DNA of 49,493 nt from a virus (taxonomy: Duplodnaviria; Caudoviricetes): positions 1 to 49,493 of the IMG/VR virus record IMGVR_UViG_3300020045_011377. One strand, 5' to 3'. Below are positions 34,836-45,343 of the stretch, piece by piece. A program made the position numbers and the translations under genes. A model generated the notes under the pieces. The model ran no database searches. It was given only the letters and a program-made list of their open reading frames with translations, and was not told the DNA's origin. Within the stretch, counting starts at the first letter, position 1. Each line of letters opens with the position of its first letter.

Positions 34836-34909
34836 TGGTGTCCAAGGTGAGTATCGAACTCACGTCGTCGGTTTTAGAGACCGCCGCTCTGCCATTGAGC
34901 TACATGGAC
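34836..34909 (-). tRNA. Amber suppressor tRNA, anticodon CUA, with encoded CCA
   Basis: Cloverleaf: GTCCATG/CTTGGAC acceptor, GCTC/GAGC D-arm, anticodon loop CTCTAAA, GTGAG-TTCGATA-CTCAC T-arm, ACCA end. Confidence 0.9.
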
Positions 34910-40592: not shown

Positions 40593-41978
40593 TTATTTCT
40601 CCTCTGCGTTGGCGCGCTGACGTACTTCATCAAAGTTCCAACGCTTGGTTAGAACACCATTTTCATACACTGTTACCAGCGCATCAGGTTTACCAGGAAC
40701 AAAAGGTGCAGATGTATATTCACCTGTATATTTGTCCTGGAACAACGTTACACGACCTTTCTTTGAGCGCTTACCAGTATCAGTAACAGGATCTTTGTAA
40801 ACATCGCGCCACTGATTGTTGACTTCAATGGCAGAGCATTTCATGGCCCATTTATTGGTATCGCGATCCAGTTGCTGGAGCAACGCACCACCTTGGCCGA
40901 ATGCAACGTTATCAGTACTGTATCCGAGTTCAGTGATTTTCTCCAAGATGTCTTTAATTGACTCTTCTGTAATACCATCACCTTGAATCACACGCATGTT
41001 GTTCAATACTTTGTATCCTTTCGAATTCACTGTGTGACCATAAGCGTTATTGAGCATCACTAGACAATCAGCGACTACTTCAGAAGGAACTCCTGAGTCA
41101 GGGCGAATAATAACCACGGCGCCCGAATCAATAACCTCTTGCTTCAATGTGCGCCCCCAGTGATTCTCAACTGCTTGATAAATATTGTAGGAATCTGATA
41201 CAACAGCCACCGGCGCACCCGGCTTCGCGAATTGCTTTAGCATATTGCGATACGCTTCAACTTCGTTTTCACGGCCCCAACTTGTGATTGTACTGTGCTC
41301 TGCTGCAGGAATACTGAATGATGGCTTCACTGCGTTGTAGTATTTCATTGCAAACAATGCACCGGTTACCGTATCAGAGCCCATTGATCCAGCGGCCAAG
41401 AACGCCATATCACCAATACCAGCAGACTCAAACGAGCTTACACCGCGCGCACCAAAATCGTGATGCTTGAAATTCAGGCCATTTACATCACCAGTCTTTT
41501 CAAGATAACTACGAATCACATTGCGAATCGACCATGCATTTGTCGCGACAGTTGAGCCATACCACGCAGCACGTAAGATACCAGTTTCGAGCCATGTGGT
41601 CGCCCAAGGAAATTCGGGATCTGTGTTCTCAATTGTTACGAGAACGTTGTTTGTAGGAACAACGGAACCTTCAGGAACAGCGCGAATACGCACTGGGAAG
41701 AAACCTCTGTGCTTAGCAAGCATATTAATCCACGCTTGCTTGTTAAATGGTTCCCCGTGATCAGCCCAGAACTTCGCAGCTTCATCGATATCTCGACGAG
41801 TAAATGGTGTCATCAGATACTCCATCAAGTAATACTGAAGACCAAAGAAGACCGTCTTCGGGTACTTACCACCACGCGATTCAACGTATGAAAATACACG
41901 CTGAGTTCCGGGTGGGTACTGACAGTGCATTGATGCTTTGTAACTATCTGTGTTTAACGCAATATTCTTCAAATTCAT
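40593..41978 (-). CDS. nadV: Nicotinamide phosphoribosyltransferase (NAMPT)
   Basis: TDSYKASM, HDFGARG, PAAEHS, VSDSYN, RPDSG and KRSKKGR motifs. Confidence 0.95.
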   Translation of the reverse strand: MNLKNIALNTDSYKASMHCQYPPGTQRVFSYVESRGGKYPKTVFFGLQYYLMEYLMTPFTRRDIDEAAKFWADHGEPFNKQAWINMLAKHRGFFPVRIRAVPEGSVVPTNNVLVTIENTDPEFPWATTWLETGILRAAWYGSTVATNAWSIRNVIRSYLEKTGDVNGLNFKHHDFGARGVSSFESAGIGDMAFLAAGSMGSDTVTGALFAMKYYNAVKPSFSIPAAEHSTITSWGRENEVEAYRNMLKQFAKPGAPVAVVSDSYNIYQAVENHWGRTLKQEVIDSGAVVIIRPDSGVPSEVVADCLVMLNNAYGHTVNSKGYKVLNNMRVIQGDGITEESIKDILEKITELGYSTDNVAFGQGGALLQQLDRDTNKWAMKCSAIEVNNQWRDVYKDPVTDTGKRSKKGRVTLFQDKYTGEYTSAPFVPGKPDALVTVYENGVLTKRWNFDEVRQRANAEEK

Positions 41979-42001
41979 GTAAATCTCCTTTACAATTTAA
42001 A

Positions 42002-42024
42002 CACTCAACGTCTATCGTTAAGTG
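42002..42024 (-). promoter_or_regulatory. GAUAGAC-loop leader hairpin upstream of nadV
   Basis: CACTTAAC GATAGAC GTTGAGTG. Confidence 0.7.
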
Positions 42025-42110
42025 ATACTAACAGAAAATAACCACTGATTAAATGTCATCCAAACAGCTGCGGTCACTACTAAAAGAATGTATGTAGTTT
42101 TGATTGACAT
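42018..42110 (-). CDS. Small hydrophobic ORF (30 aa)
   Basis: TGATG coupling to the natV stop. Confidence 0.45.
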   Translation of the reverse strand: MSIKTTYILLVVTAAVWMTFNQWLFSVSIT

Positions 42111-43120
42111 CATACACTCCCAAGCAAATAGGTGATGATGTCGAGATGGTCTTCAAACATCTTTTGTGAATTGATTGAACCGATTGGAATCCACGCAGCT
42201 TTTACTGCGTCTTCAGCACCTTGAACCTTTGGCAATTCACCAGCCGGTAACTGGATCAAGAATGCATGAGTTATTGTTCGACCACGCAAAGAGCGCTTTG
42301 GATGATCAAATACGTGGCGGTAGACAATACTACCTTTCAAAACAGGACCAGGAACTTTGAGTCTCGTCTCTTCACGCAATTCACGAATCATACCATCTTC
42401 AATTCGTTCATTTTGATTGAGGAAACCACCAGGAAGTGCCCATTGACCTTCACCAGGCGCCGCTTTGCGTTTTACGAGCAGCACATGGCCTGATTGAACA
42501 ACGACCGCATCAGTTGTCACGAAGATAGGTGGGTATGGAGCGGCTTCCCACGACTTCTTGTAATCTCTGATCACATTTGCTTCGCGCATGAGTACTTGAT
42601 ATTCATCTGTTTTCTTGAAGCGAGCAAGTGAGGCGCTCGTTGAATTCGGAAGCGCACCAGAGTAGAGCATCTCGCTCACTTCACTGAAATACATCTCACG
42701 AATATCAGATGCGTTGACGTTGTTACTCATCTGATGGTCAACGCGGAACCACTGAGGAAAAAGATCGAGATAGAACGATGAATCATCTTTCGCATGCCCG
42801 ATGATTTCAACCGTATCCCCCTCTCTTGTGTTATCAACAACAATACGCTGCACACGAGCAGCCCACTTCTGGTTGTTGTAAATTGAATCAGTCAACGGAA
42901 ACACGAAGAGTTTCGTTGGATTTAGATGCTCGTTTGGATAGTTCGCCAAGATCATATTTCGACGCTCGGCGTAGGTCCACGGATTCTTGATTGTGCGGGG
43001 CTGAAACGAGCTGCCGATGAGCAGAATTACCTTGTCTGCTGAAGACAGAGCGTAATCAACAAGACGTTTGTGTTCCGAGTGAAACGGTTGGAATCGACCG
43101 ATAAATACTTTAACGCGCAT
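42110..43120 (-). CDS. natV: Bifunctional NMN adenylyltransferase / Nudix hydrolase (NadM-Nudix)
   Basis: GRFQPFH, KNPW, NASDIR, WALPGG and Nudix box RELREET. Confidence 0.93.
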   Translation of the reverse strand: MRVKVFIGRFQPFHSEHKRLVDYALSSADKVILLIGSSFQPRTIKNPWTYAERRNMILANYPNEHLNPTKLFVFPLTDSIYNNQKWAARVQRIVVDNTREGDTVEIIGHAKDDSSFYLDLFPQWFRVDHQMSNNVNASDIREMYFSEVSEMLYSGALPNSTSASLARFKKTDEYQVLMREANVIRDYKKSWEAAPYPPIFVTTDAVVVQSGHVLLVKRKAAPGEGQWALPGGFLNQNERIEDGMIRELREETRLKVPGPVLKGSIVYRHVFDHPKRSLRGRTITHAFLIQLPAGELPKVQGAEDAVKAAWIPIGSINSQKMFEDHLDIITYLLGSV

Positions 43121-43131
43121 AGGAAATCCTC

Positions 43132-43287
43132 CTAGTTATTGGAAAGCTGTCTATCAGCAATCCTTGATTCAAAATCTTCTTCTGACTCAGCATACTCAAC
43201 GTGGCCACATTCTGGACACTTCACATCACCGTAGCCCATACTATCCCACATTCTATCGATAGTGGCTTCACATTTAGGACAAATCAT
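43132..43287 (-). CDS. Small zinc-ribbon protein (51 aa), leaderless, amber stop
   Basis: CPKC...CPECG; TATAAT 5 nt upstream. Confidence 0.55.
   Translation of the reverse strand: MICPKCEATIDRMWDSMGYGDVKCPECGHVEYAESEEDFESRIADRQLSNN
43141..43163 (-). promoter_or_regulatory. GAUAGAC-loop leader hairpin upstream of natV
   Basis: GGATTGCT GATAGAC AGCTTTCC. Confidence 0.7.
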
Positions 43288-43307
43288 ACAATATTATATG
43301 GTACCTA

Positions 43308-44201
43308 TCACATAAAACCAAGCATTCTCTCAACTGGCTTTCGCGCTCGACGAATGATATCATCTGAGAGATAATCGATACGATCACCAATACCACCCAT
43401 CGCTTTGATTGATGCCTCGAATGTATTCTTCTTCATGAACGGACACGCGTTGCAGTGACATCCATTGTAAATTGGTGCCTGACGAATATCGAGGTCAGGG
43501 CGAGCTTCTCGCATATTGTGAAGTAGGCCTTCTTCCGTTGCAACATAGATGATTGCATCATCGCGAGTGTTCTTGACCCAATTCAGCATCTTCATAGTTG
43601 AGCCAACAACATTGCTCACTTTGAGAATTGAAAGAGGTGACTCTGGATGAGAGATAAGAACCTTACGCTTACCTGGATCCTTCATGTAAGCGACCATCAA
43701 CTCATCGAGATTGAACTGATCGTGCACATCACACACCGCGGACCAGAGTGGCATGTTCCAACCATAGGTGTAGTTAAGATACGCTCCCATGTTGCGATCT
43801 GGTGAGAAGATTACCTTCTTACCCTGCTTGTAGATGTGTTTGATGACATCATCTACATTACGAGAGGTAACGATCCAATCACTCAGCGCTTTGTGCTCTG
43901 CTGAAGAGTTGATGTAGGCTACGTGTTCATGGTCGTGATACTGCTCACGCCATTTACGCAGTTCTTCAATGTCGGTCTGTTCGACCAACGAGCAAGATGC
44001 GGATAGAGTGGGAATGATTACTTCGGCGGCAGGATTCAGAATCTTAGCTGTTTCAGCCATGAATCGAACACCGAGAAACACTATTCGATCTGCTTTGGCG
44101 GCGCGCGCAGCGAGTGAGAGATCGAGTGAGTCGCCAACGTGATCGGCGAGCTTCTGTACCTCAGGAGAGGTATAGTAGTGAGCAAGTACAATTTGACGCA
44201 T
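43308..44201 (-). CDS. nadA: Quinolinate synthase
   Basis: LAHYY, GDSL, FMAETAKILNP, YINSS, HPE and GST motifs; three Fe-S Cys (SCSL, CDVH, CPFM). Confidence 0.93.
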   Translation of the reverse strand: MRQIVLAHYYTSPEVQKLADHVGDSLDLSLAARAAKADRIVFLGVRFMAETAKILNPAAEVIIPTLSASCSLVEQTDIEELRKWREQYHDHEHVAYINSSAEHKALSDWIVTSRNVDDVIKHIYKQGKKVIFSPDRNMGAYLNYTYGWNMPLWSAVCDVHDQFNLDELMVAYMKDPGKRKVLISHPESPLSILKVSNVVGSTMKMLNWVKNTRDDAIIYVATEEGLLHNMREARPDLDIRQAPIYNGCHCNACPFMKKNTFEASIKAMGGIGDRIDYLSDDIIRRARKPVERMLGFM

Positions 44202-44226
44202 AGGAAAATCCTTCCTAGAATATAGC

Positions 44227-44259
44227 AGGACCGTCTATCGGTTCCTTGATGTATTTATA
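44227..44259 (-). promoter_or_regulatory. Late promoter TATAAATA plus GAUAGAC-loop leader hairpin upstream of nadA
   Basis: AGGAACC GATAGAC GGTCCT; promoter at 44252..44259. Confidence 0.7.
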
Positions 44260-44276
44260 ATATGTTATTCTGGCAA

Positions 44277-44687
44277 TTAAATCAAGTACTTCTTTGATCT
44301 TGGTTTGTATATCAACTCATACCACCATAGTTCTTGAGGGCAGATTGATTTAAAAGCTTCATTGAAATTTTTACCGTGACCATCATCTCTTACTGATGCG
44401 AGGTGCGCAAGTTCGTGCGCCAAGTAATATGTGGCAAACCTATCACCACCGTGAACATATGCCTTACCACAGAAATGAATTCTGGTTTCATACACCCAGG
44501 CTGGTATTCTTACACTTCTATACTTTCTACTTGAGTTACCCGCCTTACAGTGAGATACTACAATCACTGTATCTTCAAGAAAATCAATACCGTTATGAAG
44601 CAGTGGTAGTGAATTGAGTAGTAAACGTCTTGTGAGCTCTAGATCAACATTACGTATATACTTCATCTCAATCTTTAGAAATTGCAA
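44277..44687 (-). CDS. SprT-like HExxH metallopeptidase
   Basis: LAHELAH...GHGKNF. Confidence 0.65.
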   Translation of the reverse strand: MQFLKIEMKYIRNVDLELTRRLLLNSLPLLHNGIDFLEDTVIVVSHCKAGNSSRKYRSVRIPAWVYETRIHFCGKAYVHGGDRFATYYLAHELAHLASVRDDGHGKNFNEAFKSICPQELWWYELIYKPRSKKYLI

Positions 44688-44709: not shown

Positions 44710-44973
44710 TTATTCATAATACCAGAGAATATCACCTGGTTTACCCATATATACACAGCGTGACATACGGAAATTACGCTCACCAGTTGTCTCGAGAAGT
44801 GTTAAATTCTTGCAATCACCGTCTTCTCGAACATCAAGGATACGAACCTGATATGACTTCTCTGAAGCAACCACTACTTGCTCAGCAGGCGCTTCTACTT
44901 TCTTCTGTGGTCTCTCCCCGCAAGCTGGTATCAGGAGTAATACCACAAGCAACACTACTTTCTGAATCTTCAT
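44710..44973 (-). CDS. Putative lipoprotein
   Basis: Signal peptide ending LLIPAC. Confidence 0.6.
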   Translation of the reverse strand: MKIQKVVLLVVLLLIPACGERPQKKVEAPAEQVVVASEKSYQVRILDVREDGDCKNLTLLETTGERNFRMSRCVYMGKPGDILWYYE

Positions 44974-45343
44974 AAGGAACCCACCTTCCTTCTTCACGTT
45001 TTTCAATTCTAACATTATGTCGAATTTCATATGCTACTTGCTCTTCAATCTTCTTTGTTTCACCTGTAAGACGACCAACTTCAGAAGCATGCCACTTCTT
45101 AAACTCTTTCGTAAGGGCCATGCGTTCAAACGCAAGCTGCTTATTACTCAGTTGGGAGCGGGTATCTTCGGCGTACCCATGAGCACCTGATGCACGATGA
45201 GAGCAGTGCACGGCACTTGATGTCTTATTTTTCTTCTGGCCGCCCGCACCTGTTCCACGAGTGTATGACCAGTCGCAGTCTTTAGCAGTGACAGAAAAAA
45301 GTATCTTAGAGTCCATTGGTCTTCTTAAAGTATTCAACGGCAC
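44882..45343 (-). CDS. Stand-alone GGQ peptide chain release factor domain protein (ArfB/PrfH-like)
   Basis: RGTGAGGQKKNKTSSAV...RSQLSNK. Confidence 0.85.
   Translation of the reverse strand: MPLNTLRRPMDSKILFSVTAKDCDWSYTRGTGAGGQKKNKTSSAVHCSHRASGAHGYAEDTRSQLSNKQLAFERMALTKEFKKWHASEVGRLTGETKKIEEQVAYEIRHNVRIEKREEGRWVPYEDSESSVACGITPDTSLRGETTEESRSAC

Follow-up and report, generated by a model that had tools for sequence, protein, structure and literature searches.

We describe a leader of two small hairpins that stands before each of three nicotinamide adenine dinucleotide (NAD) genes, nadA, natV and nadV, in a fragment of a T4-like phage (IMG/VR record IMGVR_UViG_3300020045_011377; the whole stretch analysed, 49.5 kb or 49,493 nucleotides, is referred to as the window). 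The T4-like character of the phage follows from its family B polymerase, RecA-like and DnaB-like proteins, T4-type RNase H, and six TATAAATA boxes (coding strand). The three genes are consecutive on the minus strand, in the order nadA, natV, nadV. The comparisons presented below show that this leader of two hairpins is real, widespread and uncatalogued and probably controls the translation of NAD-pathway genes, and they point to NatV, a nicotinamide mononucleotide (NMN) adenylyltransferase-Nudix fusion, as the leading, testable candidate for its reader.

Two hairpins precede each NAD gene of the window

The first hairpin (H1) of the element carries the pentaloop AUAGA closed by a G-C pair, and the second (H2) follows about 22 nt further on. 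Folding at all three genes places the Shine-Dalgarno (SD) sequence inside a GGAnn loop of H2, the stem of which runs to the A of the AUG. The features of the locus, including its open reading frames (ORFs), are as follows.

44252..44259, minus strand: predicted T4-type late promoter box TATAAATA, upstream of nadA
44227..44246, minus strand: nadA leader H1, G-AUAGA-C loop (motif, folding and model match)
44201..44217, minus strand: nadA leader H2, with the SD in an A-GGAUU-U loop and a stem that reaches the A of the AUG (folding)
43308..44201, minus strand: nadA, quinolinate synthase, 297 aa (family matches)
43132..43287, minus strand: Zn-ribbon-like ORF of 51 codons, crossing natV H1, with its stop in the 5' arm of H2 (weak matches below cut-off)
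43141..43163, minus strand: natV leader H1 with a 2x2 U-U internal loop (motif, folding and model match)
43120..43134, minus strand: natV leader H2, A-GGAUU-U (folding)
42110..43120, minus strand: natV, NMN adenylyltransferase-Nudix fusion (NadM-Nudix, PRK05379), 336 aa; candidate reader
42018..42113, minus strand: hydrophobic ORF of 31 codons, with its stop in the 5' arm of nadV H1
42002..42024, minus strand: nadV leader H1, 9 bp (motif, folding and model match)
41978..41994, minus strand: nadV leader H2, A-GGAGA-U (folding)
40593..41978, minus strand: nadV, nicotinamide phosphoribosyltransferase (NAPRTase and NAMPT_N), 461 aa
39653..40591, minus strand: RlmN/Cfr-like radical SAM gene adjoining nadV on its 3' side (below all family cut-offs; without a leader here)

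A first-pass annotation of the window had proposed a hairpin with a conserved GAUAGAC loop before each gene, followed by a mini-hairpin around the SD. GATAGAC indeed occurs 28-31 nt upstream of each NAD-gene start (42010-42016, 43149-43155 and 44233-44239, minus strand), with no further minus-strand copy in the window, and both hairpins fold at each gene as had been claimed. The 7-mer is conserved, but it does not form a 7-nt loop: its outer G and C pair with each other, and the loop is therefore the pentaloop AUAGA. The AUCA at the 5' edge, regarded as a part of the motif, proved to be local, as it is present in 10 of 156 leaders. The 7-mer by itself is not rare (5 found vs 5.97 expected in the window), and the folding z-scores of the single copies are modest (-2.0, -1.3 and -1.0). 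However, both hairpins precede only 3 of the 49 minus-strand ORFs with a GGA SD, and these are the three NAD genes. It is the placement of the hairpins, and not the 7-mer itself, that exceeds chance.

The TATAAATA box occurs six times in the window, each time on the minus strand, while 1.4 copies would be expected. The suggestion that the leader follows a late promoter and forms the 5' end of the mRNA holds for nadA, the transcript of which we take, from the usual late-promoter geometry, to start near 44246, the first base of H1. It does not hold as a general feature, as a scan of the window for the box found none in the natV and nadV leaders; these two copies appear to be internal and would sit within a longer transcript. 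The stops of the small ORFs in the same two leaders (43132-43287 and 42018-42113) lie inside hairpins, and ribosomes terminating there could open the leaders. An intrinsic terminator was rejected as the function of H1, as only nadV H1 passes the terminator scan (5 sites vs 4.1 by chance) and the SD hairpin follows everywhere. NAD-capping of the leader by NatV was also considered and set aside: two E. coli enzymes, NadD and NadR, are described as devoid of NAD-capping activity in the accessible part of PMC8131947, and the leaders of natV and nadV are apparently internal.

Covariation points to an RNA element

The alignment comprised the three window copies and 96 of 116 non-redundant leaders, 9 more rows having been dropped by hand; H1 was chosen in it by loop letters and position, and H2 by best pairing. 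Covariation was found at all 12 pairs of the two-hairpin element, with 84.6% of cells paired, as compared with 50.1% after shuffling and 29-42% in slid controls, and with 437 two-sided changes, as compared with 155 after shuffling. The mini-hairpin of the first-pass annotation is present, but it is an integral and the better-paired half of the element rather than an accessory to it: 94% of its cells are paired, a figure that leans upward because H2 was chosen by best pairing, as compared with 78% for H1. The pair beside the H1 loop is G-U in 20 and A-C in 1 of 156 leaders, and this excess points to RNA and to the sense strand. The folding energy of the whole leader shows no sense-strand preference (58 vs 65) and was uninformative in this respect. 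The spacing between the H1 and H2 loops is narrow, mostly 20-25 nt, invariant bases are few, and a promoter box lies near the leader start in 75 of 156 leaders (17.9 after shuffling).

A DNA operator was ruled out by the variable arms around a conserved centre, by the G-U bias, and by a separate NrtR-like box in cyanobacteria, which, like a TATAAT sequence, is located upstream of the two hairpins without overlapping them. The RNA-based translational NAD regulon that the first pass had envisaged is well supported by the covariation, the excess of G-U over A-C, the position of the SD in H2, and the association with NAD genes elsewhere.

The element accompanies NAD genes in phages and bacteria

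Homologous loci were collected by searches of IMG/VR, GenBank phages, GTDB and metagenomes, which gave best matches and not a random sample. A pattern scan of viral contigs (ATCA and the 7-mer) was too loose, with about 32,000 stretches, and its loci were not used. In the window, the covariance model matches only the three copies, which had been used in building it. Outside the window, in the kind of search that the first-pass annotation had proposed, the matches are tied to NAD genes: in 433 kb of held-out loci, all 35 matches at E<=0.01 precede natV (19), nadV (15) or nadA (1), and in three whole phage records and in genome G001 the matches are at natV or nadV, apart from one weak match. Whole-genome model searches were lossy, as known copies in G003, G005 and W03 were missed, and phage BUCT-ZZ01 gave no match despite having the element. 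Among other ORFs in phage loci, 9 of 293 have both hairpins, and each of these is a small ORF of a natV-nadV locus, positioned between the leader and natV. Almost without exception, then, the element precedes one of the three genes natV, nadV and nadA, or the ORF that opens the transcription unit to which they belong.

Unrelated ORFs of 108-155 aa were seen directly after the leader and ahead of natV at L158:922, L159:1257, L160:2602, L170:1575, L176:1598, L180:1572, L182:1608, L186:2156 and L190:2601. The leader stays with the promoter in these loci, which implies control via translational coupling.

The same architecture precedes natV and nadV in phages RTH11, B23, BUCT-ZZ01 and RpAliso, as well as in Gammaproteobacteria, cyanobacteria and a leptospire metagenome-assembled genome. 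It was also found before nadA in three further contigs (L001, L322 and L470, of which the L001 copy scores weakly), and in a set of 35 nadA loci the model matches were confined to the 4 with natV nearby. In a 121-genome sample of one family, model matches occurred in 7 genomes, each of which encodes both NadM-Nudix (present in 18 of the sample) and NadV (present in 10). Seven of 301 cyanobacterial genomes encode NadM-Nudix; five of them have a C-GG(A/G)GA-G leader, one has a divergent leader, and one has none. In Gammaproteobacteria, 10 of 400 genomes encode NadM-Nudix, and the leader was seen by eye in 4. No leader was seen in ACP17, Mx1 and several others, and thus the element is common, not universal; KVP40 has H2-like hairpins only. 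A pattern match in the cyanobacterial genome G586 does not precede a NAD gene and is probably due to chance. In the cyanobacterial nadV leaders L246:270-322 and L247:3929-3981, the GGAGU loop of H2 is kept even though a second SD-like sequence, AAAGGAA, lies downstream, as if the loop was kept apart from its SD duty.

NatV as the candidate reader of the leader

As to what reads the leader, the first-pass annotation had left the choice between a metabolite bound directly and a protein such as NatV; the protein option has since gained evidence, whereas the small-molecule option has gained none. Judging from comparisons of leaders and protein sequences, we put the chances at about even that the leader is a translational operator bound by NatV, with ADP-ribose as a possible inducer. 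NatV, acting as an oligomer, would bind both pentaloops, which resemble each other and are separated by about 22 nt; the contact would probably be made by basic residues that form a patch next to the Nudix box (R249, K255 and K300 in window numbering). Bound NatV would hold H2 shut and block the ribosome at all three mRNA starts. The most speculative step, drawn by analogy with NrtR, is that NatV would let go of the RNA in response to ADP-ribose, which is the Nudix substrate and is also generated when host defences cleave NAD. The costly pathway might then run only while NAD is being destroyed. The NARP2 pathway (Nampt and Nmnat) overproduces NAD and consumes phosphoribosyl pyrophosphate (PRPP), a cost that could be the motive for repression (accessible part of 10.1101/2024.02.11.579819), and ADP-ribose suppresses DNA binding by NrtR, a Nudix-derived repressor (accessible part of PMC2330246). 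In a bolder form, which we hold only tentatively and think doubtful, NadM-Nudix would be an unrecognised RNA-binding repressor that governs the entire NAD regulon and is released by ADP-ribose. Phages could in this way detect NAD cleavage by Sir2/TIR-type defences and switch on NAD rebuilding by translation, with the loop and the protein co-evolving by lineage.

The H1 loops are lineage-specific and include G-AUAGA-C, C-AGAGA-G, G-GUAGU-C and 4-nt loops. The H2 loop can read AGAGA or GUAGA and the H1 loop can read GGAGA, so that the two hairpins seem to be equivalent sites. In 27 of 32 representative loci, the leaders of natV and nadV have the same closing pair and the same loop size (15.8 after shuffling; three mis-called loci were left out), and the same concordance is seen in 23 of 28 loci with unlike stems (12.5 after shuffling). 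This agreement would suit a reader that is specific to each genome. On phylogenetic trees, with six labels corrected by hand, the loop class required 12 changes for NatV and 18 for NadV, as compared with 44 after shuffling. Position 41 of NatV ranked first as a determinant of the loop class, being mostly P in 37 G-C types and A in 11 of 12 C-G types; L323, an independent case, is among those with A. It was nevertheless rejected as the determinant and is a lead only, as about one in five G-C types also have A. Divergent H1 loops (GGGG-rich, six-base GAUAGA, and GCCGAA/GAAGAA) are repeated before both genes of one genome in L314 (Ochrobactrum phage OC), L315 (SCTP-2) and L133/L406 (RsoM2USA).

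The type of NatV and the leader at nadV could be compared in a clade of freshwater phages, in which NadV identity is about 80% both between groups and inside each of them, while the two NatV types are only 36% identical. H1 at nadV was present in 46 of 46 contigs with a 339-aa NatV and in 0 of 23 with a 324-aa NatV, all within one NadV clade, whereas H2 at nadV was kept in all 69; this split favours NatV over NadV as the reader. The contigs with the 324-aa NatV have an H1 of the G-GUAGU-C type at natV in 18 of 23 cases (two read by eye).

A comparison of 61 leader-bearing with 20 leader-less NatV proteins, labelled by hand, revealed a candidate RNA-binding surface. Lysine or arginine occupies position 255 in 85% of leader-bearing and 15% of leader-less proteins, position 300 in 92% and 35%, and position 249 in 84% and 45%, respectively; the best equivalent contrast in NadV was 0.44 vs 0.70. 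In an AlphaFold model of NatV (predicted local distance difference test score 94), R249 is on the Nudix helix and K255 and K300 are in the loops after it, and the three basic residues would be close in space. Two leader-less NatVs are nested among leader-bearing relatives. In L436, which is 73% identical to L404, H1 is gone and the protein carries R249H, K255N and K300T, and in the cyanobacterium L467, which keeps nadV and has lost the leader, the residues are A249, S255 and A300; the Nudix box is kept in both. In the leader-bearing L219 and L315, the Nudix-box glutamates of NatV are replaced (KLKAE and NLKKD), hinting that the Nudix domain may be kept without catalysis. The HxGH motif of the window NatV (residues 14-17; 42110-43120, minus strand) reads HSEH, which was otherwise seen only in L001.

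Several observations weigh against NatV as the reader. The window NatV itself has Q300 and E224, L353 has an H1-like hairpin without K255 and K300, KVP40 and RAS14 keep both basic residues and have H2-like hairpins only, and ACP17 keeps R255 and has no visible leader. NadV, too, was not found in L436, which fits NadV as the reader equally well. The loop concordance is inflated by shared ancestry, and the cyanobacterial L247 has unlike loops at its two genes. In the freshwater clade, a single origin of the NadVs of the 324-aa group was not rejected (approximately unbiased test, p=0.088), and the split amounts to 8 changes on the tree, of which 2 are forced, so that the 46/23 division may reflect few events. 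Moreover, the nadV leader, 1-3 kb from natV, could travel with natV by block recombination, and linkage alone would keep the natV leader together with NatV. Finally, natV and nadV nearly always co-occur, and therefore presence alone cannot separate NatV from NadV as the reader.

Alternative explanations

The leader could instead be a new small riboswitch, similar in manner to the guanidine-II switch with its tandem hairpins: both loops would close on a small molecule such as nicotinamide, NMN, NAD+, ADP-ribose or PRPP and lock the SD without a protein. Two short hairpins with conserved loops, a narrow spacing, an SD in H2, the link to one pathway across phyla, and a promoter box near the start of about half of the leaders would all suit such a device. 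However, the loops vary between lineages yet agree within genomes, they are not complementary to each other, invariant bases are few, and the loss of H1 at nadV tracks the NatV type, which would not be expected for a fixed ligand; we consider a riboswitch unlikely. We are still more sceptical that NadV, which is a phosphoribosyltransferase, reads the same operator, either alone or paired with NatV. PyrR, a homologue of phosphoribosyltransferases, binds RNA, NadV is present in all 7 genomes with model matches, no H1 stands at the NadM-Nudix genes for which NadV was not found (L436 and 7 copies linked to a nadE-type gene), and the loop class is clustered on the NadV tree as well, with the 18 changes given above. 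On the other hand, NadV shows no difference between phages with and without H1 at nadV, L467 retains nadV without a leader, most bacterial nadV genes with no fused NadM-Nudix nearby are leader-less, and L323, an independent C-G case, lacks the top loop-class columns of NadV.

It is improbable that the leader is a fixed dimmer without any reader, in which H1 shields the 5' end of the mRNA, while H2 reduces initiation on the genes of costly enzymes until it is opened by ribosomes that end small upstream ORFs. About half of the leaders are at a likely 5' end, small-ORF stops fall inside the window natV and nadV hairpins, H2 without H1 persists at nadV in 23 of 23 phages with the short NatV, and the KVP40 NARP2 operon is toxic in E. 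coli (accessible part of 10.1101/2024.02.11.579819), all of which would fit; conserved loop letters on free stems, the fixed spacing, and the loop agreement within genomes would be left unexplained. As for a site for a host factor (a CsrA/RsmA-type protein, a nuclease or S1) in phages and bacteria alike, a GGA in a hairpin loop over the SD and two sites per leader recall such targets, but H1 usually has AGA and not GGA, and the GGA register of the CsrA consensus differs from that of the leader. GGA in both loops together with csrA in the host was not the pattern found: CsrA (PF02599) was detected in none of the 5 leader-bearing cyanobacterial genomes, while the control was positive in 3 of 14. 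The link to the NatV type would also be left unexplained, and we regard a host factor as very improbable.

Relation to known regulatory systems

The E. coli thrS operator, bound by ThrRS, and the T4 gene 43 operator are autogenous translational operators read by enzymes. The leader resembles them in having two stem-loops beside the ribosome-binding site, an oligomeric pathway enzyme as the reader proposed here, and the translational feedback that this reader would exert; it differs in that one leader type fronts several genes, the SD itself is in a loop, no tRNA mimicry is evident, and the reader is putative. By analogy, the leader may work like an operator of the thrS or PyrR type. The guanidine-II (mini-ykkC) riboswitch is likewise a pair of short hairpins next to the SD, and their loops are conserved; its loops and genes are different, and the leader has no self-complementary core. 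Miniature NAD+-II variants with an H-type pseudoknot to the SD reportedly exist; no loop-SD complementarity was seen in the leaders.

The leader is unlike both NAD+ riboswitches, in agreement with the first-pass annotation, and the Rfam search that it had proposed gave no family match to the leaders: with Rfam 15, the whole window at the gathering threshold yielded one tRNA only (34839-34909, minus strand), and positions 41900-44350 yielded nothing at E<=10. The NAD+-II (pnuC) riboswitch likewise belongs to the NAD pathway, sequesters the GGA of the SD and follows a translational OFF logic. It is built of P1 and P1a around a large internal loop, with a conserved 3-bp pseudoknot between UCC and the SD GGA and an A-run (PMC9841397, PMC10085692), whereas the leader consists of two separate hairpins; no UCC was present among the H1 loops listed, and the SD is held by the H2 stem, not by a pseudoknot. 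The NAD+-I riboswitch (nadA motif) also stands before nadA and has tandem parts, but these are two full aptamer domains, found in Acidobacteria (PMC9841397), while the leader is only about 50 nt long; it was absent from the acidobacterial nadV loci among our homologues. The NrtR regulon is similar in that it controls nadM-nadV and nadA and in that ADP-ribose is sensed by a Nudix domain closely resembling the one in NadM; however, NrtR uses a separate DNA-binding domain and a 21-bp DNA palindrome with a GT-N7-AC core (PMC2330246). The variable arms and conserved centre of the leader are the opposite of the conserved arms of the NrtR site.

The nadV and natV genes encode the two counter-defence enzymes of NARP2, to which the window phage adds nadA; no RNA leader is described in the accessible account of that pathway (10.1101/2024.02.11.579819). 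Our literature search found neither an account of how NARP2 is controlled nor a description of the leader, although the supplements of PMC11109978 or subscription papers could hold one. Term searches in the main texts, as far as accessible, of PMC11109978 (no nadV), PMC8632094 (no nadV or nadM), PMC7266159 and PMC9503650 gave no such motif. NAD rebuilding is a main phage answer to NAD-depleting immunity, and as NARP2 is costly, the leader offers a concrete control element. It is common to phages and bacteria, including Synechocystis salina (L252), the NadM of which is closely related to the solved enzyme 2QJO. As NatV and the loop each occur in two types, the identity of the reader can be tested, and either outcome would be valuable: a metabolic enzyme doubling as an RNA-binding repressor of a regulon, or a new riboswitch class.

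Other features of the NAD locus

Phage quinolinate synthase is rare, with 9 records in 50,697 GenBank phages, all of them at most 34% identical to the window nadA product; nadB and nadC were not noticed among the 35 window proteins scanned. A protein with an RF-1 domain (PrfH/ArfB-like, weak match) is encoded upstream of the NAD cluster at 44882-45343 on the minus strand. The RlmN/Cfr-like gene that adjoins nadV has counterparts frequently near NAD genes in other phages, and its homologue in L006 (L006:711-1655) stands under a two-hairpin leader of its own.

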